64,000 bases of DNA from Nanobdellota archaeon. GTDB taxonomy: Archaea > Aenigmatarchaeota > Aenigmatarchaeia > QMZP01. The notes beneath the pieces are model-generated. The model ran no database searches. It had not been told where the DNA came from and saw nothing but the letters and a program-made list of their open reading frames with translations. The stretch spans positions 1 through 64,000 of the forward strand of contig JBDRJQ010000029.1 of NCBI GenBank assembly GCA_043814765.1, written 5' to 3'. The translations under genes were made by a program, and so were the position numbers. Of this stretch, positions 1-12,282 are shown piece by piece. Numbering within the stretch: the first letter of the stretch is position 1; each line of letters begins with the position of its first letter.

Positions 1-237
1 GAGCGACAGCAGAATGAAGGTCAGGCTGAAGGTCTTACCAGACAAGCTGAGCGGAGGTGCATGGCCGTCGTCAGTTCGTGCTGTGAAGTGTCGAGTTAAG
101 TCTCGAAACGAACAAGACCCGCGCCCTATGTTGCAACTGTGTTTTTTAATGCAAGCACTCATAGGGGACCGCTGGTGATGAACCAGAGGAAGGGGCGGTC
201 GACGGCAGGTCAGTATGCTCTTAATCCCCTGGGTTAC

Positions 238-1028
238 ACCAGGTTTGCAAGTTGATAATCGAGCTTGTTTTGAGCATTGAATCACTACCTAGTCTCATCT
301 TTCACATTGTTCTTTTATTTCAAAAAATCAAAAAGAACATGGAAAGATTTGATGATTAGAATTTTGTGATTCAAATGGCATCAAAACATCAAACCGTAAT
401 TACTCCAATCTTTGCGTACACGTTAGGTTTAATTGGTGGAGATGGAACAATTACAGAAAATCCAAAAACAGGAGAATATAGAATATCTGTAATTGATAAG
501 TGTCTTAAATTTCATCAAAATATAATAAAACCAAGATTTGAAGAGCTGTTTTCAGTGAAAATAGTAATTTCTAGCATAAAAACAAGAAAAGGTGAAACAA
601 CTTATAGAACATGACTGTGTTCTAAAAAAGTTGTTGAAATTTACAAAAAGGCTCAAATTCCAACCAAAAACAAGACATTTTCTATGAAAACACCAAAACC
701 AATCTTCAATTCATCCAAAGACTCTATTAAAGAGTACATAAAAGGATGGATGGATTCAGAAGGTTGGGTAACTAACAAAAAAGTTAGAAAACCTAACAAA
801 ATGTACATTTATCCTAGAATAGCATTTCACGTATCAAATAAGCAAATAAGAGATGATATTGTAGTACTGTTGCAAAGGTTTGGAGTGAATCCAAGTGTTT
901 GGAGATACAAAAACATGTATGGACTTCAAATAATTGGATTCGAAAAAGTCAGGAAATATTTGAAACAAATTGGTTTCAATCATCCTGATAAGATCCAAAA
1001 AGCTCGTAATTTGCAAGCTTGGAACCAA
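238..1028 (+). other. 16S rRNA BHB intron 1 (791 nt, after ~E. coli 1226) carrying a homing endonuclease gene
   Basis: Removal restores GGGTTAC|ACGCGGCCTACAA. Central helix GGTT(232-235)/AACC(1023-1026), bulges ACA(236-238) and AAA(1027-1029), 15-bp terminal stem 239-253/1008-1022. Confidence 0.93.
375..1028 (+). pseudogene. Double-motif LAGLIDADG homing endonuclease interrupted by in-frame TGA at 612-614
   Basis: Motif 1 YTLGLIGGDG (ORF 366-614) and motif 2 YIKGWMDSEG (ORF 684-1082) are in the same frame with an open linker between; C-terminal IGFNHPDK is typical. Confidence 0.85.
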
Positions 1029-1164
1029 ACGCGGCCTACAACGACTGGGACAATGAGATGCGACTCCGAAAGGAAGAGCTAATCTCCAAACCCAGCCCTG
1101 ATTTGGATTGAGGACTGCAACTCGTCCTCATGAAGGCGAAATCCCTAGTAGTCGCTGGTCACCA

Positions 1165-1236
1165 AACACCCTTTTTACGATAGCTACCGCTTATACAAAA
1201 AGCGTGTATGGAAAAATGTGAAAAGAGTGTGTGGAT
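1165..1236 (+). other. 16S rRNA BHB intron 2 (72 nt, after ~E. coli 1363)
   Basis: Helix TCAC(1159-1162)/GTGG(1231-1234), bulges CAA and ATT, flanking stems 1151-1158/1238-1245 and 1166-1178/1218-1230. Removal restores normal h43 length. Confidence 0.92.
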
Positions 1237-1351
1237 TCTAGCGGCGAATATGTTCCTGCTCCTTGCACACACTGCCCGTCAAGCCAACCGAGTGGGATTG
1301 TGACGAGCTCCTGGTTCTTGCCAGGATCAAGTTATAGTCTTGTGAGGTGGG

Positions 1352-1403
<52 letters not shown>

Positions 1404-1528
1404 ATATTCTATATGGGACACTATCTGTCATGAAGTCCGTTACTACTTTTTATTGACTAAAGAATCAGCTGCTGCTTTTGCGGAACGAATACCAAAAGGG
1501 TTAAATAGCTAAGTACAATCAGTTTTAT

Positions 1529-2257
1529 ATGAAAAAGGAAAATCCCGTATTGGAATTTGTAGCAGGAAGTGGGTTTCCTCTAGAGAATGCAGGATGCATG
1601 ACTCCTATATTTAAAGTAAGTGAAGGGAGATATTTTGAAGCTGGAAGTGAACATACTTTTAATCAATATGTTATGGATGACCTTATTAAAGAAGAGGCTG
1701 CTGCATTATTTTATCCTGTAGATGTTAGTGAACGGTTTGATCTTGAAGAACTACAACAGTGTGACGAGTCAGATGTTTATTATGGAGATAATGCATACAT
1801 ATTGTATTTTACGGATCTGGCTTCTGATTGCATTGATTCGGAAAATCTTAAAGCGATGGGTTTAAGACATCAAGGTATCCCAGTAGAACTTTACAAACCT
1901 CCGGAAAAATTAAAAGAATTTCATCCCTTTTTCCTTTTTGGCAGGGAAAGCCTTGTAAAAGGCTTTATTCCGGAGCTGATTTATCTTTGTGGAGAGAAGA
2001 TAGATAGATTACTTGAAGTTGGAGATAAAGTTGAAGATGTCTCAAAATACTCAGTTAGTGGAAAAGATGATCCGATAGCCCAATTAGCCCAGGTTATGAT
2101 GAACATAGCCACAGAAGAAACAATGGAAAAATCAATCTCGTGTTATGGAAAAACCTTGCTTCTAAGTCCTATGGCAAAAAATTTTGATGTTTGGTTAGAT
2201 TTTGTCTGTGATCATTACGGAATAGACGAACAGCAGATCAGAAAAAAATATTTTTGA
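1529..2257 (+). CDS. Hypothetical protein in the 16S-tRNA-Ala spacer
   Basis: 242-aa ORF with TATA-like TTAAATA at 1501; no recognisable motif. Confidence 0.75.
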   Translation: MKKENPVLEFVAGSGFPLENAGCMTPIFKVSEGRYFEAGSEHTFNQYVMDDLIKEEAAALFYPVDVSERFDLEELQQCDESDVYYGDNAYILYFTDLASDCIDSENLKAMGLRHQGIPVELYKPPEKLKEFHPFFLFGRESLVKGFIPELIYLCGEKIDRLLEVGDKVEDVSKYSVSGKDDPIAQLAQVMMNIATEETMEKSISCYGKTLLLSPMAKNFDVWLDFVCDHYGIDEQQIRKKYF

Positions 2258-2374
2258 GAATAAATCTTCTCGATGCCCGCTAAACAACATCTAAAACCAA
2301 TTTATAAACAACATACCATATTTGTTATTAAGTCGATGACTAATACTGATTATAAATAGTCATCTTAGCTGTAT

Positions 2375-2493
2375 GGGCCTGTAGATCAGTTGGTAGATCG
2401 CTCGCTTTGCAAGCGAGAGGCCGTGGGTTCGAAAAGCATGACGGCTTTAATCCATATGCATAAGCCGTCTGTTTGAAACTCCCACCGGGTCCA
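2375..2493 (+). tRNA. tRNA-Ala(UGC) with 46-nt BHB intron at 59/60 (2434-2479)
   Basis: Cloverleaf GGGCCTG/CGGGTCC with G3:U70, anticodon TGC 2408-2410. T-loop split TTCGAA|T by a BHB (TTCG/TGAA helix, AAA and ACT bulges). Confidence 0.95.
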
Positions 2494-2515
2494 TATTTTA
2501 TTGTGTTGATGTGAA

Positions 2516-3031
2516 ATGAAGGTAAAAGATGCAATTGAACAGAGAAAAAGCATCCGCAAATATTCAGATAAACAGATACCTGAAGAAATTATAAAAGAGC
2601 TTCTAATTGCCGCACAAAAAGCACCATCTGCAAAGAACGTGCAATCTCATAAATATTTTATAGTAAAAAACAAAGATGTTATAGAAAAATTAAAAAAGGA
2701 GAAAGCATTTGAACAACCATATGTTTACGATGCTCCACTGATTGTCGTTTGTTGTGCAAATCCACAACTATATCCGAAAATGGAAAGTGCTGATAGTTCT
2801 TCAGATGAATATGCTTTGATAGATTTATCAATTGCCGCTTCCTTTATGGTTCTTAGGGCAGTTGAATTGGGTCTTGGTTCTGTGTTCGTGGCATGGGTAT
2901 ATCCTGACAAGATAAGAAAGGTTCTCGGAATACCTGAAGAATATATTATTCCGTTTGTTTTACCGATAGGTTATCCTGCAGAAAATCCTAACCAAAGGCC
3001 TAGAAAAGGCTTGGATGAAATAACATTCTAG
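2516..3031 (+). CDS. Nitroreductase family protein
   Basis: RKSIRKY, APSAKNVQ, AVELGLGS and IGYP motifs. Confidence 0.93.
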   Translation: MKVKDAIEQRKSIRKYSDKQIPEEIIKELLIAAQKAPSAKNVQSHKYFIVKNKDVIEKLKKEKAFEQPYVYDAPLIVVCCANPQLYPKMESADSSSDEYALIDLSIAASFMVLRAVELGLGSVFVAWVYPDKIRKVLGIPEEYIIPFVLPIGYPAENPNQRPRKGLDEITF

Positions 3032-3091
3032 TTGTTCTTTGGAGATATCGGAATCGATGTGTTCACCTTACAGGTTCTGATTGTTTCACTA

Positions 3092-3108
3092 AACCTATAT
3101 AAATATAA
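3092..3108 (+). promoter_or_regulatory. Putative TATA-box promoter for the 23S precursor
   Basis: CCTATATAAATATA upstream of a ~330-nt structured leader. Confidence 0.45.
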
Positions 3109-3437
3109 TGTGTGTTATATAGTATATCGTATATATTAGCAATTAACCGCATTGATGCTCGCGGTTAATATCATTGGTTCATCTGAACTGTTCAGAGTCA
3201 TATAGCTTGTGGTGACAACAAAGTTGTATGTAGGGAGGATGACGGAATTCGGTGACGATATCTGTCTATTTCTGAGCAGATTGATGTATCTATCTCATAT
3301 TCACTGTTTACAGTGTGGTCTCTTCATTGAACGATGAAGGGTGACTTGAAAAGGGATTAGTGATCTTACCGCTCCAGTATGAAGCTTCGGCTTGTGATTA
3401 TGTGAACACCGAGTGATGTATTCCTTTTATGATACCA

Positions 3438-3469
3438 TAGGCAAGTTACTCCTGACAAAAAAAGGACTA
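3438..3469 (+). other. 5' arm of the 23S pre-rRNA processing stem (pairs with 6601-6631)
   Basis: TAGGCAAGTTACTCC(3438-3452) is the exact reverse complement of 6617-6631, followed by a BHB-like motif with one 4-nt bulge. Confidence 0.85.
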
Positions 3470-3921
3470 AAGACGTTACATGGTGAATGGCTTGGCTCGA
3501 ATAGTGAGGAAGGACGTGGTAAGCTACGATAATCCTGGGGTAGCAGCATACATGCTTTGAACTCAGGGATTCCGAATAGGACTTCCTGCTATGCGTTCCC
3601 ATTAGGGAACACTTACGCGGCGAATTGACACATCTTAGGAGCCGCAGGAAAAGAAAGCAAATGCGATTCCCTTAGTAAGAGCGACTGAAAAGGGAACAGA
3701 ACAAACCGAATCCCTATAGGAAACTATAGGGAAATGTGGTGTTTGGACTCGGGTTCTGCCTAACTCTTGATTCTGAAGTTTGCTGGAAAGCAGTGCCGTA
3801 GAGGGTGATAGCCCCGTAAGAGGAAAGAGAAGGATGATACCGAGTATCCAGAGTACTGCCAGTTGAATATCTGGTGGGAATGTGGGAGACAATAACTCCT
3901 AATTCTAAATATACTTCGAGT

Positions 3922-3959
<38 letters not shown>

Positions 3960-4914
3960 TATCCGTAATAGGAGATGAAAAGATCCTGAAGCCATGTAAC
4001 TATAGGTAGATATGGCTTGTTCAGTTCTTTTGAAGGAAGATCCGCAAGGGTCTAATACGAAGAAAGAATATAACGAGTTATATCGTCGGTTTTGAAACAT
4101 TAGACAAGGAGTTTGCTTCTGTGGCGAGGTTAATTATAGTAGCCGTAGCGAAAGCGAAACCTACGCAGCCTGCAAGGTAGGTGGGTATGAAAGTGCCCAA
4201 GTCACAGGGGTAAGACCCGAAGCCGGTCGATCTAGCCGTGGGTAGGGTGAAGTCTCGGGAAACCGAGATGGAGGCTCGCACCCGTGTTGAGATTCAAATC
4301 GCTGGGATAACCTGCGGCTAGGGGTGAAAAGCCAATCGAGTTCGGCGATAGCTGGTTCCTTCCGAAATGAGTCGTAGCTCAGCCTCGCTGGAGATTGATA
4401 AGGGGGTAAAGATACTGATTAGGTAATCAAGGAACGAAAGTTCCAGTTACTTTGTCAAACTCAGAATACCTTATCGTTGTAGAAGGCGGGAGTGAGGATC
4501 CGGGGTAAGCTCGAGATCCGAAAGGGAAAGAACCCATCTCAAGGTTAAGGTCCCAAAATGATTGTTAAGTGAGAAAGGGAGTTTTCAACCCCAGACAGTG
4601 GGAATGTTGGCTTAGAGGTAGCCACCTTTTAAAGAGTGTGTAATAGCTCACCCACCGAGGTTGGAAGCCCTGATAATGGACGGGACTAAACAGTCTACCG
4701 ATACCTTGAACCCCGAAAGGGATGGAGTAGGAAGGTATTCCGTGGGGGCAGAAGCTTGGATGTAAATTCATGTGAACCCCATGGAAAAAAGAATCTTGTC
4801 AATAGTAACAGCATAGTAGAGTGAGAATCTCTACCACCTTATGGGCTAGGGTTCCTCAGCAACGATTATCAGCTGAGGGTTAGTCGGTCCTAAGGCAAAT
4901 CCTAACTGGAGTTT

Positions 4915-4946
<32 letters not shown>

Positions 4947-5445
4947 TGAGAAGATACGTGCGGCGACGCAAGACTTATTCCTGACGCTTTGAGATAATCC
5001 AACCATGGAAACGTGGCTAACCATTTAAGCCTGTGGAGTATCGTCATGGTGAGAAGCAGGTGAAGCTGGGAACGGCTCCGCAAGGAGTTTGGATAAATCT
5101 TAGAGCCAGTGAAAAGGGAATGAGTAAGGATTCTTCTTAACCGTACCGAGATCCGATACTGGTGTCCCTCGCTGAGAAGGCGAAGGTGTGTTAGGAGAAA
5201 TCAGTCTAGGGAATTCGGCAAAATAGCCCCGTAACTTCGGAAGAAGGGGTGCCTATTGCTCTAATTTAATTAGAAACAGTAGGTTGCAATAACAAGGGGA
5301 GTCCAACTGTTTAACAAAAACTTAGGGGACTGCTAGTCGGAAACGATTTGTATAGTCCCTGAGGCCTGCCCAGTGCCAGTCGGTTAAATTCGGGTACAAC
5401 CGGATGAAGCCCTGGTAAACGGCGGCGGTAACTCTGACCGTCTTA

Positions 5446-5483
5446 GTTGGTGGTCAACAAGTGATGTAGACTATCTAGGATAT
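5446..5483 (+). other. 23S BHB intron (38 nt, after ~E. coli 1927)
   Basis: Removal restores CGTCTTA|AGGTAGC. Helix GTCT/GGAT, bulges TAG and ATA, internal hairpin. Confidence 0.92.
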
Positions 5484-6021
5484 AGGTAGCGTAATCCCTT
5501 GCCGTTTAATTAACGGCCCGCATGAACGGCTTAATGAGATTCCCACTGTCCCAGACTGATGCCTAGTGAACTTAATTTCCTGCGCATATTCAGGAGTCCT
5601 CCAGTGGGACGAGAAGACCCCGTAGATCTTTACTACAGCCTGTTGTTGCGATATGGTGACGATTGTATAGTGTAGGTGGGAGCGATGCGGTCATGGCGAG
5701 AGCTATGGCTAAGGCGCCGATGTAACACCACCCTTTTGTTATCATATTGCTTACCCTTTAAGGGGACATCAACTGGTGGGTAGTTTGACTGGGGCGGTAC
5801 ACCCTTGACATCTTATCAAGGGTGCCCTAAGATTTCCTCATCGAGGTCAGAAATCTCGAGAAGAGTGTAAGGGCAAAAGGAAGTCTGACAGGAAACTTGA
5901 CAACAAGGTTTCCTGCCGCGAAAGCGTGGCCTAACGATCCCCTGTGCCTCATTAATTGGAGGCCAGGTCTGACAGAAAAGTTACCTCGGGGATAATGGAG
6001 TTGTGGCGCGCGAGAGTCCAC

Positions 6022-6130
6022 ACTTCGTTTCTCGATCCACTAAAATAAAGTATATTGTCTTTTGAGACATAGCGCTAGCTGTGTTGATGAAAGGAGATGT
6101 ATAACCAGGAATGGAGAAATGAAAGGTCAA
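6022..6130 (+). other. 23S BHB-like intron (109 nt, after ~E. coli 2477, H89 loop)
   Basis: Removal restores GAGTCCAC|ATCGAC. Helix GTCC/GGTC (one mismatch), bulges ACA and AAA, 10-bp stem 6024-6033/6114-6123. Confidence 0.88.
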
Positions 6131-6403
6131 ATCGACCGCGTTCATTGCTTCTCCGCCGTCGGCTCGGCTCTTCCTGGACGTGCAGCAGCGTCCAAGGGTG
6201 GGGGTGTTCACCCATTAAAGAGCCACGTTAGCTGGGTTAAATACGTTGCGAGACAGTATGGTCTATATCTACTGGAGGTGTTGGTTACCTGAAGGGAAGA
6301 TACAATCAGTACGAAAGGAACATTGTGTCGTGGTCACTAGTGTACCGGTTGTGTGATTGCAGTGCCGGGTAGCTATACCATAGCGGATAAACGCTGAAGG
6401 CAT

Positions 6404-6440
6404 TCGAAAGCTTGGTCAGTTGAACAAGCTGTCGGTCTAT
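6404..6440 (+). other. 23S BHB intron (37 nt, after ~E. coli 2754)
   Basis: Removal restores GCTGAAGGCAT|CTAAGC. Helix AGGC/GTCT, bulges ATT and ATC, internal hairpin. Confidence 0.92.
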
Positions 6441-6797
6441 CTAAGCGTGAAGCCGCCCCTGAAAAGAGGTAACCGTTGTTCGACCTGGTAGGCGACTATC
6501 GGTAAGAACAGGAAGGTCCTGTAGACGACAGGGTTAATGGAATCGGGGTGTACGTGCTAAGGTCACGAGGCATTCAGCCCACGATACCCAAACACCTGAC
6601 TGGTCCTTTGTTAAAAGGAGTAACTTGCCTAAACCTATTTTTTTCAAAATTGGTTTGGCTTAGCCACAGCTTTAATAGTATATACTAAAAGGGATATAAA
6701 ATAAAAAAGCGGGACTATTCAAATAGTCCACCTAAGCATTGACAACAAATCACGCTCAATTAAATCTTTTTAAACCCCTCAAATAACATTTCTATAA

Positions 6798-7150
6798 GCG
6801 AGTCGGTTCGGATGATTCCGCTGCGTTCTGGTCTGCAACGAGCTAACGCGGTGAGGAAGCTCTGCCCACTCAAAAGAATTGATGGCATATGCCGTCTGTA
6901 TGTAGTGCACTGCCGAGAGGCAGAGGCTGAGAAGTCTGCATCAGGCGCAGAGAAATACTGCTTCCTTGGAGTAATGAAGCAAAGGTTAACAAGGCAACTT
7001 AGTTAACTATGCAGAACGTCGAATGGGATAGTAGGTGAGATTCCTGATGATGTATGAGTGCAAGCCGTGAGGCGCTTAGACAAATATCATCACCTCGTTC
7101 ATGGTGACAAGCCGTGCGAGATGACAAAAGGCAGGCTACGACCGACACGC
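6798..7150 (+). ncRNA. rnpB: RNase P RNA
   Basis: P1 GCGAGTCGGTTCG/CGACCGACACGC, CR-I-like GAGGAAGCTCTGCC pairing with CR-V-like ACAAAAGGCAGGCTA, TGCAAG segment, TATA-like TTTTAAA upstream. Confidence 0.88.
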
Positions 7151-7185
7151 TTACCATTTTTAAACCTTGAAAACTAAATGATACT

Positions 7186-7341
7186 ATGTCACAAAAAAAG
7201 ATGCAAATGCCGCAGTCTACTGCGGGACTTATAAGGTATTTCGATGAGTCAAAAGAATCTATAAAGATAAAACCAGAGCACATTATAATATTTTCTACAA
7301 TCGTAATAGCACTAGAGGTAATTCTCCGTTTAATGTTTTGA
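7186..7341 (+). CDS. secG: Preprotein translocase subunit Sec61beta (51 aa, absent from ORF track)
   Basis: Manual translation MSQKKMQMPQSTAGLIRYFDESKESIKIKPEH followed by a TM helix. Confidence 0.9.
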   Translation: MSQKKMQMPQSTAGLIRYFDESKESIKIKPEHIIIFSTIVIALEVILRLMF

Positions 7342-7370
7342 TTTTTTAACCATAAAACCAAATTCTAATT

Positions 7371-8177
7371 ATGAGTTTTACTATTAAGTTAGGCCCAGCT
7401 GGTTCTCCAGGAAAAAGCACGCTAGAAGGCATTCCCATGATTAAAGAAATGGGATTGCACACAATGGAAGTTCAGTTTGTTCGTGGCGTTAAAATGACAA
7501 ACGACTTAGCTAAGAAGTGCGGTGACAAAGCAAAGGAGCTTGGCATTGATTTGAGTGTGCATGCCCCATATTACATAAACCTCACTTCTGAGGAGAAAGA
7601 TAAGAGAAAGGCAAGCGTTAAACGCATTCTAGATTCTTGTGAAAGAGCGCATTATTTAGGAGCAAAGTACGTAACGTTCCATCCAGCATACTATGGAAAG
7701 TACAAGAAAGAAGATGTTTTTGATGCAGTAAAAAAATCAATTCTTGATATGAAAGGTGTGATTAAGAAGAATGGTTGGGAAACAGAGCTCGCTCCCGAAA
7801 CAACTGGCAGAGTGAAACAGTTTGGTGATATTGATGAAAGTTTAAGGATGATGAAAGAAACAGGCTGTTTTCTTGTTATAGATTTTGCACATCTTTTTGC
7901 GAGAAATAGAGGTAAAATAGATTACAAAGAGATATTGGATAAGGTTCAGGATTACAAAATAAAGAAGATTCAGTGCCACTTTTCCGGAATAGAATTTGGG
8001 CAGGGCGGAGAGAGAAACCATTTAGTGATAAGCGAGGATAAACCACCTTTCAATCCTTTAGCTAAAGAATTGATGGATAGAAAGCTTAGCGCAACTATCA
8101 TTTCAGAGAGCCCAATTACCTGGAAAGACTCGCTGAAGATGAAAGAAATTTTTAAGGGTCTGGGATATAAGTTCTGA
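7371..8177 (+). CDS. nfo: Endonuclease IV (AP endonuclease family 2)
   Basis: SVHAPYYINL, FHPAYY, PETTG, DFAH, HFSG motifs. Confidence 0.92.
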   Translation: MSFTIKLGPAGSPGKSTLEGIPMIKEMGLHTMEVQFVRGVKMTNDLAKKCGDKAKELGIDLSVHAPYYINLTSEEKDKRKASVKRILDSCERAHYLGAKYVTFHPAYYGKYKKEDVFDAVKKSILDMKGVIKKNGWETELAPETTGRVKQFGDIDESLRMMKETGCFLVIDFAHLFARNRGKIDYKEILDKVQDYKIKKIQCHFSGIEFGQGGERNHLVISEDKPPFNPLAKELMDRKLSATIISESPITWKDSLKMKEIFKGLGYKF

Positions 8178-8205
8178 TTTTGGATGCAACTTTTTTAAAA
8201 GGTTT
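8178..8205 (-). repeat. Dispersed palindromic repeat copy
   Basis: Reverse complement AAACCTTTTAAAAAAGTTGCATCCAAAA matches copies at 26986 and 49731. Confidence 0.7.
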
Positions 8206-8292
8206 GGGTACAAATTCTAGCCTATTTGTCGTATTCACGCGGGTAACTTTAAAAAGCCTTTAGCTGTATTTCTATTGATATCAGAGGATATT

Positions 8293-8817
8293 ATGCAGGA
8301 AATAAGAATACACGGTCGTGGAGGACAGGGAGCTGTTACCTGTGCTATATTGATGGCAAAAGCTGCCGGTAAAGATGATAAGTACACGCAAGCTTTTGGT
8401 GCGTATGGTCCTGAAAGAAGAGGAGCTCCTGTGAAAGCCTTTTGCAGAATAGATGAAAAACCAGTTATAATAAGAAGTCAGGTTAAGAACCCCGATTATG
8501 TTATTGTCTTGGATTCATCGCTACTAGAACTGCCAGAAGTTTTTGAAGGCATCAAACCAGAAACTAAGATTCTAATAAACAGTGAAAAAGTAAACCTTGG
8601 AGTTTCAAACGAATCTTATTTTTTGGATGCGAGCGCACTTGCACTAAAACTTATAGGTAGAGAGATTGTAAACACAGCTATGCTGGGCATGTTTTCAAAA
8701 ATTAGTAATATTGTATCGTTGGAAGCTGTATCAAAATCAATAGAAGAAAACTTTCCACAGAAGCTTGCAGAGTCAAACAAAAAATTAGTAGAAGAAGCGT
8801 TTAATGCTACTAGGTGA
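8293..8817 (+). CDS. porG: Pyruvate/2-oxoacid:ferredoxin oxidoreductase gamma subunit
   Basis: EIRIHGRGGQGAVT and YGPERRGAPV. Confidence 0.94.
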   Translation: MQEIRIHGRGGQGAVTCAILMAKAAGKDDKYTQAFGAYGPERRGAPVKAFCRIDEKPVIIRSQVKNPDYVIVLDSSLLELPEVFEGIKPETKILINSEKVNLGVSNESYFLDASALALKLIGREIVNTAMLGMFSKISNIVSLEAVSKSIEENFPQKLAESNKKLVEEAFNATR

Positions 8818-8821
8818 GATT

Positions 8822-9085
8822 ATGACAGATATTGATAAGGCTGGTGTAGTGAAGAAACCTGGTTCAGCAGTTAAAAACAGAACAGGTACATGGAGAAGTG
8901 AAACCCCAGTTGTTACAGATAGTTGTATTGGTTGTAAAATATGCGAGTTTTACTGTCCAGAAGGCGTAATAAAGGTAGTGGATGGCAAAGCTAAAATAAA
9001 CTTGGATTATTGCAAAGGCTGCATGATATGCATGGAAGTTTGTTCGGTAAAGGCAATTGAAAAGAAGAGGAGACGAAATGAGTGA
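8822..9085 (+). CDS. porD: Pyruvate/2-oxoacid:ferredoxin oxidoreductase delta subunit
   Basis: TGTWRS and two 4Fe-4S motifs (CIGCKICEFYCP, CKGCMICMEVC). Confidence 0.94.
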   Translation: MTDIDKAGVVKKPGSAVKNRTGTWRSETPVVTDSCIGCKICEFYCPEGVIKVVDGKAKINLDYCKGCMICMEVCSVKAIEKKRRRNE

Positions 9086-10217
9086 AAAAACTAAAAATGT
9101 TATGTCAGGTGGTCAGGCAGCAGCAGAAGCCATAAAGCTCTGCAAGCCTGAAGTAATTCCTGTTTATCCTATCACACCGCAAACTCCTATTGTTGAATCA
9201 ATTTCTCAAATAGTTGCAGATGGTGGTTTAGATGCTGAAATAATAAACGTGGAATCAGAACATTCAGCAATGGCTGCTGCTATTGGTGCGCAGGCAACTG
9301 GCGTGCAAGCGTACACAGCAACAGCTGGTCAGGGCATGGCTCTGATGCATGAGATGCTATTTGTTGCGTCAGGCATGAGACTTCCTATAGTAATGGGCGT
9401 TTCCAATAGAACTTTATCCGCTCCGTTAAATATTTGGAATGATCAGCAAGATTCCTTTTCAGAGAGAGATTCTGGATGGATTCAGTTATATGTTGAAAAT
9501 GCACAGGAAGTTTTTGATGCTCACATACAGGCATTCAAGATTGCACGTGAAACAGAAACTCCTGTCATGGTGTGCATGGATGGCTTCATTGTTTCACATA
9601 CATACGAACCTATACAGCTTTTAAGCGAAGACGCTGTAAGAAAGTTCCTGCCAAAACATGAAGCTAAAGTTAAACTAGACCCATCAGCACCAGTTACAAT
9701 GGGTCCGGTTGCAACGCCTGAATATTTCATGAGATTCAAAAAGCAACAGCAGGATGCTCTTGAAGAATCAAAGAATGTTATTAAGAAAATTAATCAAGAG
9801 TTTGCTTCCATATCTGGAAGGAGTTATGGCAACGGTTTGATAGAAAAAATAAATATGGAAAATAAAGAGCACGCAATAATCACAATAGGTTCTATAACAG
9901 GTTCTGCTAGAGAGATTGCAGAGAAACTCGGAGTTGGTATAATAAGGGTTAGATGCCTAAGGCCTTTCCCTGCAGAAGATTTAATAGAAGCTTGCAAGAG
10001 CTTAAAATCCATCGGCGTTCTGGAAAAAGACATATCACTAGGCGCAAACGGTGCACTATATGATGAGATAAAATCAGCATTATATTCATTAGAAAACAAA
10101 CCAAAAATTTCTGGTTATATTATAGGTCTTGGTGGAAAACCAATAAGCATTGAAGACATTTCATCAATTATAGAAAAGGTAAAGGATGGTAAAGAAGGTT
10201 CTGAGTGGCTGATGTAG
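9078..10217 (+). CDS. porA: Pyruvate/2-oxoacid:ferredoxin oxidoreductase alpha subunit
   Basis: YPITPQT, ESEHSA, RPFP, GLGG. Confidence 0.95.
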   Translation: MSEKTKNVMSGGQAAAEAIKLCKPEVIPVYPITPQTPIVESISQIVADGGLDAEIINVESEHSAMAAAIGAQATGVQAYTATAGQGMALMHEMLFVASGMRLPIVMGVSNRTLSAPLNIWNDQQDSFSERDSGWIQLYVENAQEVFDAHIQAFKIARETETPVMVCMDGFIVSHTYEPIQLLSEDAVRKFLPKHEAKVKLDPSAPVTMGPVATPEYFMRFKKQQQDALEESKNVIKKINQEFASISGRSYGNGLIEKINMENKEHAIITIGSITGSAREIAEKLGVGIIRVRCLRPFPAEDLIEACKSLKSIGVLEKDISLGANGALYDEIKSALYSLENKPKISGYIIGLGGKPISIEDISSIIEKVKDGKEGSEWLM

Positions 10218-10259
10218 TGGTTTATTTAAAACATACTGATAATTTTTATTTGTGAAACA

Positions 10260-10439
10260 ATGAATTGTAAAAAATGTCCTTATTTTGATACCAAACAGAA
10301 AATGCCAATTAAAGTTCCACAACTAGTAGGTTACTGTAAGCTTCGTGAAAAGTTTGTAGATGAGATGGGTTTGGGTAAACAGTTCTGTAAAGACAAGGCT
10401 GTTATAAACATATCTGCAGATTTTAATAAGAAAGGATAA
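10260..10439 (+). CDS. Small Cys-containing protein (59 aa, absent from ORF track)
   Basis: Manual translation MNCKKCPYF...GYCKLR...FCKD, fills the intergenic gap. Confidence 0.6.
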   Translation: MNCKKCPYFDTKQKMPIKVPQLVGYCKLREKFVDEMGLGKQFCKDKAVINISADFNKKG

Positions 10440-10469
10440 AAAGTAACTATAAAACATTAATGTGATTCT

Positions 10470-11597
10470 ATGTTAGATCTTGCTTTCAAAAACATATTGA
10501 GACAAAGAACCAGAACGTTTCTGACAATATTAGGCATTGTTATAGGCATAGGAGCAATTGTTTCACTGGGTTCCTTATCAGATGGTATAGCAGCATCTGT
10601 GCAAACCGGTTTAGAGGGTAACGCAGGAAAAATAATGGTTCAGGAGAAAGGTTCATCTTCTATGTTCGGTATGTCAATTGGCTCATCTTTAGACGATGAT
10701 GATATAGATGTACTAGAGGCCATACCAGGAGTGAAAAGAGTTGTTCCAATAAACTATTATATGCAGTCTGGTGGGTTTGGTGCACCAGAATGGTTTGCTA
10801 TGGGAATAGATCCAGAAAATATAGATCTTTTCATTGGAGAGAGCATAGAAATGTACGAAGGAAGAACATTGGAAGAAGGTGATTTTGATTCTATAATTGC
10901 AGGAAAGGGTTTAGCGGATAAGTTTAATTTGCAAAAAGGAGATTATTTCCAGATAGGTGGCAAAGATTTTGAAATTATTGGAATAATAGAAGAGACAGGA
11001 AATAGTGATATTGATATTAGTTTTGTTATGTTATTAGAAGATTTATTAGATCTTCTTGAAACTAACAATTACCAAATGATATACGTTATACCAGAGGACA
11101 TAAGAGATGTTGAAGTTCTAGCTGAAGAGATAGAAGATACGGATGATGAACTGGACGCAATGACCAATAAAGACATAGCCAGACAAGCAGGAGAGATAGT
11201 CGGTCAAATAAGAATATTTACAGTTGGCATAGGAGGTATAGCAGCTGTAGTAGGTGGTCTTGGTGTTATGAACACCATGATAATGGCTGTACTAGAGAGG
11301 AGAAAGGAAATAGGTGTGATGAAAGCTATAGGAGCTACAAAAGCCGTTATATTAAAACAATTTCTAACTGAATCAGCAATGATAAGTACTATAGGAGGTT
11401 TAATAGGCTTGTTAATAGCAGCTGTATTAGTTTTTGGAATAGGTTTTGTTTTAACAGGTTTCATAAGGCCAACAATAAGTATTGGACTTGCTTCAGGAAG
11501 TTTATTATTTGCATTATTCTTAGGTGTTGTAGGAGGATTTTATCCTTCATGGAAAGCTGCACAACTTGATCCAGTTGATGCTTTGAGGTATGAGTAA
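10470..11597 (+). CDS. ABC transporter permease (MacB/FtsX family)
   Basis: [39 protein letters not shown]. Confidence 0.94.
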   Translation: MLDLAFKNILRQRTRTFLTILGIVIGIGAIVSLGSLSDGIAASVQTGLEGNAGKIMVQEKGSSSMFGMSIGSSLDDDDIDVLEAIPGVKRVVPINYYMQSGGFGAPEWFAMGIDPENIDLFIGESIEMYEGRTLEEGDFDSIIAGKGLADKFNLQKGDYFQIGGKDFEIIGIIEETGNSDIDISFVMLLEDLLDLLETNNYQMIYVIPEDIRDVEVLAEEIEDTDDELDAMTNKDIARQAGEIVGQIRIFTVGIGGIAAVVGGLGVMNTMIMAVLERRKEIGVMKAIGATKAVILKQFLTESAMISTIGGLIGLLIAAVLVFGIGFVLTGFIRPTISIGLASGSLLFALFLGVVGGFYPSWKAAQLDPVDALRYE

Positions 11598-12282
11598 TAT
11601 GACAAATAAAGCTGTAATTGAGTTGCAAGGAGTAAAGAAGATTTATAATTTAGGATTATCTTCAGAAGTGAGAGTTCTGAAAGGAATAGACCTAAAGATA
11701 AGAGAAGGGGAGATTGTTGCAATAATGGGCCCATCAGGCAGTGGCAAAACAACTCTTCTTGATATAATAGGTTGTTTGATGAAGCCAACAGAAGGTAAAC
11801 TGTTTATAGACGGCAAAGAAACTGGACTAATGGATGATGATGATCTAGCTCATATAAGAGGAGAAAAAATTGGTTTCATATTCCAGCAATATAATCTTGT
11901 ACCGGGTTTAACTGCTCTAGAAAACGTCGAACTCGCTATGAGAATAAACCACAAATCAAAAGATGAAGCTAAAAAGAAAGCAAAAAGTCTTTTGGGGTTG
12001 GTTGGTTTGGGAGACAGATTAAACAACAAGCCTTCTCAATTATCAGGCGGTGAACAACAAAGAGTTGCTATAGCAAGAGCCCTGTCAAACAATCCAAAAA
12101 TTATTCTGGGTGATGAGCTAACTGGCAATCTTGATACAAAGACAGGTGAAATGATGATGGAACTTATAAAGAATTTAAATAAGAAAGAGGGATATACTAT
12201 TATTATAGTAACACATGATTATCATATTGGTAAGCAAACAGAGAGAATAATTAAAATAAAAGATGGAGAATTGGTTAATTGA
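11590..12282 (+). CDS. ABC transporter ATP-binding protein (LolD-like)
   Basis: [27 protein letters not shown]. Confidence 0.95.

Follow-up and report, generated by a model that had tools for sequence, protein, structure and literature searches.

The intron excised in Desulfurococcus mobilis is described, in the parts of two secondary sources that were available to us, as a stable circle that encodes or yields an endonuclease of 194 residues (PMC5387670, PMC11724312). For the 16S rRNA genes of Thermoproteales, Desulfurococcales and Aigarchaeota, the accessible part of Jay and Inskeep (2015; PMC4496867) lists 13 intron loci, at positions 374, 548, 722, 781, 803, 901, 908, 919, 978, 1093, 1205, 1213 and 1391. 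Bulge-helix-bulge (BHB) introns in rRNA genes of DPANN archaea were already noted by Nawrocki, Jones and Eddy (2018; PMC6125680, as far as the text was accessible), so that an intron of this type in a DPANN rRNA gene is not new in kind. Here we analyze a stretch of 64,000 nt from an archaeon of the Aenigmatarchaeota (assembly GCA_043814765.1, contig JBDRJQ010000029.1, positions 1 to 64,000), hereafter called the window. Near its start, a 16S rRNA gene is interrupted by a BHB intron of 791 nt (238–1028, + strand) that carries a gene for a LAGLIDADG homing endonuclease. A first-pass annotation, made from the letters alone, had recognized the intron and its gene and had proposed that the stop codons of this gene exist only in the circularized intron and that evolution had fitted the gene for reading from circular RNA.

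Archaeal intron endonucleases could be translated from the circle, from the linear intron or from the precursor; which of these routes is used is an old and rarely tested question, and each would give the enzyme a different C-terminus. Comparison of homologous introns led us to a modified reading, to which we assign a probability of roughly 55%. According to this reading, the element is a BHB intron whose endonuclease frame runs off the 3′ splice site, the enzyme of intact relatives would be made from the excised circle, the stop codon met beyond the ligation junction would be incidental, and the copy in the window would have decayed. That this intron is spliced, circularized and translated we infer from its sequence.

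A BHB intron after position 1226 of the 16S rRNA gene

The host genome comprises 859 kb in 39 contigs with a G+C content of 33–40%, among them contig C29, which begins with the window. Since the most similar loci in other assemblies come from MAGs titled Candidatus Aenigmatarchaeota, the DPANN-like host suggested by the first-pass annotation is correct. Rfam aligned positions 1–1402 to positions 934–1478 of the SSU_rRNA_archaea model, with two large insertions of 811 and 74 nt. Together with an alignment to E. coli rrsH, this gives one 16S exon upstream of the intron (1–237, +), belonging to a gene that begins outside the window, and another downstream of it (1029–1402, +). The 5′ part of the gene is located on contig C37 (105–942, minus strand). 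Positions 1–29 of the window and of C37 form an exact 29-nt overlap, so the gene is merely split by an assembly break inside the 16S sequence, near E. coli position 990; the host has a single copy of the 16S rRNA gene, and this copy is interrupted by the intron.

Removal of 238–1028 restores the mature sequence, which then aligns without gaps to E. coli rrsH 1216–1295. Base 237 corresponds to E. coli 1226 and the intron site is 1226/1227, in agreement with the approximate position given before. The dinucleotide AC at 238–239 is repeated at 1029–1030, and the border may be shifted by 0–2 nt to the right, which changes neither the exon product nor the sequence of the circle. Locus 1226 is not one of the 13 loci given above from the available part of the survey by Jay and Inskeep (PMC4496867) and lies 13 nt downstream of locus 1213, consistent with the earlier impression that the site is not among the described crenarchaeal 16S intron sites.

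Around both intron ends, we searched exhaustively for a BHB core, a helix of 4 bp with a 3-nt bulge on either side. The search returned 238–1028 as the single strong solution, the runner-up reaching a total of 4 bp. The 5′ half of the motif (232–238, +) consists of GGTT at 232–235 and the bulge A236 C237/A238, with the splice after 237. In the 3′ half (1007–1029, +), the inner-helix strand at 1007–1022 is followed by AACC at 1023–1026 and the bulge A1027 A1028/A1029. All four central pairs are formed between 232–235 and 1023–1026, and on the intron side of the two bulges (236–238 and 1027–1029) positions 239–254 (+) pair with 1007–1022 in an uninterrupted, mismatch-free helix of 16 bp. If the circle were read, the 5′ strand of this helix would encode the tail beyond the junction. 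The helix is also included in the minimum-free-energy fold of 200–1070 (z = −10.5).

DNA of related introns was obtained from scans of genome and metagenome contigs and from 371 genomes of the phylum, with a seven-row alignment as query. Eight distinct introns occupy this site, namely those of the window, L009, L006 (= L016), L010 (= L018), L008 (= L019), L012, L015 and L022. Loci L013 and L014 share coordinates and scores with L012 and were counted with it, and L007, L011 and L020 are cut off at their 5′ ends and stand outside the set of eight. The BHB is retained in all eight introns. Their inner helices comprise 7–16 bp and are wholly different in sequence between clades yet fully paired, which provides strong support by covariation; the central pairs are of the GGNT/NNCC type, with four of four pairs in seven introns and three of four in L010. 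Genes for the splicing endonuclease (PF01974 tRNA_int_endo, C37:39348–39605, 76 bits) and for the RtcB ligase (PF01139, C20:36929–38197, 523 bits) were found in the same genome.

Self-splicing of the group I or group II type could be considered in place of BHB splicing, as LAGLIDADG-bearing group I introns are known from rRNA genes of DPANN archaea, including a large-subunit (LSU) gene of Aenigmarchaeota (PMC6125680, in the part accessible to us). We rejected this explanation and regard its probability as close to negligible: the group I and group II models gave no match at gathering score on 1–12000, nor at E ≤ 1 on 200–1100, and a canonical, covarying BHB accounts for the borders. BHB search, covariation and the Pfam match of the encoded protein agree with the first-pass assignment, and the sequence at 238–1028 is a mobile, protein-spliced archaeal BHB intron with a homing-endonuclease gene.

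A second insertion in the 16S rRNA gene, located within the downstream exon near E. coli position 1360, is a mini-intron of 72 nt without ORF (open reading frame; 1165–1236). It forms a canonical BHB with a 4-bp central helix, 3-nt bulges and an outer exon helix of 8 bp. At L006 (2255–2330), an additional 16S insertion of about 30 nt was observed a few bases upstream of the 1226 intron, near the hairpin-intron locus 1205.

The endonuclease frame runs through the 3′ splice site

The endonuclease gene is divided by an in-frame TGA at 612–614 (codon 80), between the two LAGLIDADG motifs. The first half (375–614, +) contains motif 1 with D23 and is closed by this premature stop, and the second half (615–1028, +) contains motif 2 with D127 and E129 and remains open to the last base of the intron. 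The sequence GTGAT at 366–370 (+), 4 nt before the ATG at 375 and complementary to the 3′ end of the 16S rRNA (1393–1402), may act as a Shine-Dalgarno sequence; the same letters also precede the ATG in L009 and L006. The Pfam family LAGLIDADG_3 matches in two stretches (E = 6.6e-14), the best of them at 119–200, and the nearest solved chains are 2dch (E = 4.6e-7), followed by I-DmoI, which confirms the protein family named in the first-pass annotation. A protein search yielded 15 homologues at E ≤ 1e-39 with 48–89% identity. G21, G22 and D23 as well as D127, E129 and G130 are invariant in the protein alignment (A2), so that each motif has an acidic residue. By analogy with I-DmoI, we presume that the catalytic role lies among D23, D127 and E129.

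Two further LAGLIDADG-like matches were observed in the host genome. One is at C1:10402–10998, in an open frame of 304 residues, and the other, at C37:1950–2567, contains an internal TAA and lies about 1 kb upstream of the 16S rRNA gene on the opposite strand. In the phylum, 94 of the 371 genomes have a LAGLIDADG-like match at E ≤ 1e-10.

From 615 to 1028, no stop interrupts the frame of the second domain, and its last codon, CAA (1026–1028), ends on a codon boundary at the 3′ splice site, as had been noted before. The accompanying statement that no stop precedes the 3′ splice site holds for 615–1028 and fails for the TGA at 612–614. With 1028 joined to 238, positions 238–258 read in the phase of the ORF as five sense codons, TGA (253–255) and TAA (256–258); the tandem stop at 253–258 (+) is thus real and is in the frame of the ORF only across this junction. 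In the precursor, the frame passes through 17 codons of exon 2 before it ends at a TAA (1080–1082). The end of the ORF track at 1082 reflects read-through into the exon, as the first-pass annotation had proposed; its claim that stops exist only in the circle goes too far.

We looked for internal stops in the homologues: in none of the eight introns with DNA does a stop separate the enzyme core from the 3′ splice site; the frames of the 5′-truncated L007 and L011 also run through the splice site. Because the eight introns leave 0, 1 or 2 nt between the last complete codon and the splice site, exon 2 is entered in all three frames, and gene callers have extended the ORFs into exon 2 in all three. 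Run-off past the 3′ splice site is a real layout of this intron family. The frame runs off because the last codons of the gene form the 3′ strand of the splicing helix. These last 7–10 codons are weakly conserved as protein outside the closest clade, suggesting that they lie beyond the functional core of the enzyme. The family-wide overlap between the 3′ end of the gene and the splicing helix offers a clean test system for the question of the messenger.

Stop codons beyond the splice site

Past the circle junction, a stop is reached after 5 codons in the window and in L009, after 6 in L006, 15 in L010, 21 in L008, 1 in L015 and 20 in L022, and not at all in L012. In exon 2, the frame is closed after 17 codons in the window and in L009, and after 10 codons in L006, 20 in L010, 7 in L008, 14 in L012, 6 in L015 and 27 in L022. 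L009 has TGA TAG where the window has TGA TAA, and in L006 a lone TAA follows one codon further on. In the comparison of stop placement among homologous introns that the first-pass annotation had suggested, the position of the post-junction stop is not conserved among the eight introns. In the two wrong frames across the same junctions, the distances to a stop range from 0 to 43 codons with a median of about 11 (16 readings from the eight introns), and the in-frame readings show no excess of early stops relative to these frames; a stop at most about 6 codons past the junction is no more than expected by chance.

These distances bear directly on the proposal that the gene evolved for circular reading and that the TGA TAA at 253–258, created by ligation of 1028 to 238, is a selected feature of the family. 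The proposal would explain why all eight introns are free of stops before the 3′ splice site despite full turnover of the stem, and a stop at codon +6 or +7 past the junction in the window, L009 and L006 is in line with it. The entry into exon 2 in three frames, which leaves no conserved exon-encoded tail, and the statement in the accessible parts of secondary sources that archaeal intron circles yield endonuclease (PMC5387670, PMC11724312) also speak for it. On the other hand, the post-junction stops come after 1–21 codons or never and no sooner than in the wrong frames, the intact enzyme frame of L012 has no stop on the circle, and the window copy is truncated at codon 80 anyway. Four related proteins (P0006, P0007, P0017 and P0018), from four contigs of 972–1287 nt, end one residue before the splice site, which suggests that in their genes the last codon of the intron is itself a stop.

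Introns at other rRNA sites of the phylum argue in the same direction. A blastn comparison with the rRNA of this genome gave 15 candidate gaps, eight of which had a usable BHB border, five of them strong, with 12 bp or more in the inner helix, and three weak, with 6 bp; seven ambiguous gaps, in L023, L024, L025 and L034, were left out, and 13 of the 25 loci L021–L045 had no rRNA match. In six of these eight introns, the endonuclease frame ends 0–23 nt before the 3′ splice site, and in two it runs through, so that at these sites the gene more often has its stop within the intron. Selection of the gene for reading from circular RNA, as claimed in the first-pass annotation, therefore appears quite unlikely to us.

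In a 23S (LSU) intron at L038 (G311:C56; locus coordinates 1195–1971, reverse), the TAA of the endonuclease gene consists of exactly the last three intron bases, and the stop codon overlaps the 3′ bulge of the BHB.

Circle, exon 2 and the messenger of the enzyme

Our preferred reading keeps the circle as messenger and drops the selected stop. The pre-rRNA would be cut in both bulges, and RtcB would join the exons and close the intron into a circle, in which the 16-bp helix is predicted to be capped by a 7-nt loop that holds the junction. In intact relatives, the excised and ligated circle is most likely the messenger for the enzyme. Having passed the ligation junction, a ribosome would terminate at the next stop codon in the 5′ stem or the leader; the position of this stop would be incidental and not an evolved device, and the tail past the conserved core would be a dispensable extension. 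The secondary sources, in the parts available, report such a role for the D. mobilis intron (PMC5387670, PMC11724312). The route itself is a tentative choice whose probability falls a little short of even. The premise of the first-pass annotation that I-DmoI is translated across the circle junction stood in part: these sources support the circle as the origin of the enzyme, and in their accessible parts none says that the frame of I-DmoI is without a stop codon or extends across the junction, nor that any described archaeal intron ORF crosses it.

The alternative is that the enzyme is made from an RNA that includes exon 2, either the unspliced pre-rRNA or a transcript started within the intron, and is terminated by a stop in the exon without any role for the circle. 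An in-frame stop occurs 6–27 codons into exon 2 in all eight introns, and for L012 this is the sole route to termination. A conserved T/A-rich block about 55–60 nt before the ATG in the window, L009 and L006, recognized by eye, is a candidate promoter for an internal start. In L012, the ATG is only 22 nt from the splice site, so that no internal promoter fits there. Furthermore, the 3′ end of the ORF in the precursor, and in L012 also the ribosome-binding region, is locked in the helix of 7–16 bp. Dalgaard et al. (1993) are reported to have found I-DmoI expressed from excised intron species and not from the precursor. On balance, we give termination in exon 2 without a role for the circle a probability between about a quarter and a third, lower than that of the circle, and the remainder falls to other routes or to no expression.

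Several observations weigh against translation from the circle or against other parts of our reading. Sequence alone cannot separate termination on the circle from termination in the exon, as a precursor stop is present in every one of the eight introns. The L012 intron (2473–3126) has 654 nt, equal to 218 codons, and an intact enzyme frame, and its circle is free of stops, so that the frame is endless; such a circle would fit translation of the precursor better than translation of the circle. L012 shows that an intact member of the family can be without any circle terminator. Its endless frame may be due to chance, because only about eight leader codons need to be open. The putative stops at the last intron codon in P0006, P0007, P0017 and P0018 point away from the circle as well. 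With respect to splicing, the outer exon-exon helix of the BHB in the window has only 2 bp, and the motif is a relaxed form on the exon side for this reason. The part of the reading that concerns decay is weakened by two points: outside codon 80, relaxed selection is not clearly visible on the branch leading to the window (15 synonymous against 12 non-synonymous changes, with 20 and 7 on the L009 branch), and the TGA at 612–614 could be an assembly or population variant and not a fixed state.

A bolder version of circle translation would regard the gene as terminator-less, with the end of translation set by the topology of the RNA and with L012 possibly producing tandem endonucleases by rolling-circle translation. 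We consider this version doubtful. If true, it would mean that a circular RNA (circRNA) is naturally translated across its junction, and possibly without end, in a prokaryote.

A nonsense codon in the window copy

At codon 80, the window has TGA, and its two closest relatives with DNA, L009 and L006, have AGA; arginine is present in this column in all 14 homologues that cover it. TGA is an ordinary stop in this genome: of 718 frames that stay open from stop to stop over 150 codons or more, 171 end in it, and the standard code already yields about 87% coding sequence. Since the genome uses TGA as a stop, the copy in the window cannot make the full enzyme, unless the TGA at 612–614 is not the true or fixed state. 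The simplest reading is that a single A-to-T change, from AGA to TGA, truncated the enzyme after 79 residues. If TGA were read as an amino acid, by a changed code or by programmed read-through, a single uninterrupted frame of 218 codons would result and the gene would be intact. The homologues carry arginine and not tryptophan or glycine at this position, for which one A-to-T change is the simplest explanation, and we rejected TGA as a sense codon on the basis of the genome-wide use of TGA as a stop; its probability is very low.

As the window branch lacks clear relaxation, the loss of the enzyme looks recent, if the TGA is not a variant or an assembly error. Loss by the AGA-to-TGA change would fit the decay of homing endonucleases after fixation of an intron, and an intron with an intact BHB would still have to be spliced and would persist as a passenger. 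L022 is a further stage of decay: its intron at the same site (1211–1732, 522 nt) is without the middle of the endonuclease gene and retains the BHB and the open 3′ frame. Another broken copy may be represented by two proteins, P0015 and P0016, each from a contig of 1133 nt, which look like its two halves. The window copy, conserved apart from its one nonsense change, captures the homing cycle in its decay phase.

The rRNA locus

Downstream of the 16S rRNA gene and on the same strand, the spacer to the 23S rRNA gene (3459–6611) contains an ORF of 242 residues without Pfam match (1529–2257) and a gene for a nitroreductase-family protein of 171 residues (2516–3031, E = 4.5e-26). Between them, a tRNA-Ala(UGC) at 2375–2493 carries some 45 extra nt in the region of its T-loop. 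It gave a partial Rfam match (34 bits) and no gene with ARAGORN, and the insertion is probably a non-canonical BHB intron.

Comparison with known systems

The intron described here adds a 16S site, after E. coli position 1226, and a DPANN lineage to the catalogue of archaeal BHB introns with homing endonucleases. Introns of this kind defeat 'universal' 16S primers and cause rRNA genes to be split in assemblies, as in the present genome, where the 16S rRNA gene extends across two contigs. The catalogue of Nawrocki et al. (2018; PMC6125680) covers group I introns, and the part available to us contains neither a list of BHB sites nor a remark on ORF ends.

Endless frames are known from circular RNAs such as eukaryotic circRNAs and a viroid-like satellite RNA (PMC11724312, in the part accessible), and the stop-free circle of 654 nt in L012 resembles them. 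In contrast to rolling-circle circRNAs, the likeness of L012 consists in the frame alone and can easily be due to chance. The intron of the window, with 791 nt and with stops, differs from these RNAs.

With the I-DmoI intron from the 23S rRNA gene of D. mobilis, the window intron shares the BHB, the location in an rRNA gene and an enzyme with two LAGLIDADG motifs, and chains of I-DmoI, which match over motif 1 with E about 3e-4, belong to its nearest relatives of solved structure. It differs in its location in the 16S instead of the 23S rRNA gene, in its DPANN instead of crenarchaeal host and in the low sequence similarity, and also in that its frame runs off the intron and its own copy of the enzyme is truncated.

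The best solved match to the encoded protein, 2dch, covers both domains (E = 4.6e-7, query residues 12–191) at low identity. We take PDB entry 2dch to be I-Tsp061I from a Thermoproteus 16S intron. In the sources as far as they were available, the Thermoproteales introns at loci 1205 and 1213, for example Pog.S1213 with I-PogI, are BHB introns with LAGLIDADG genes in the same region of the 16S rRNA gene. Hairpin-only mini-introns occur beside the Thermoproteales introns (PMC4496867, accessible part), as does the mini-intron at 1165–1236 beside the intron of the window. Unlike the Thermoproteales introns, the window intron resides in a mesophile-type DPANN genome with 37% G+C and is inserted after 1226, 13 nt downstream of 1213.

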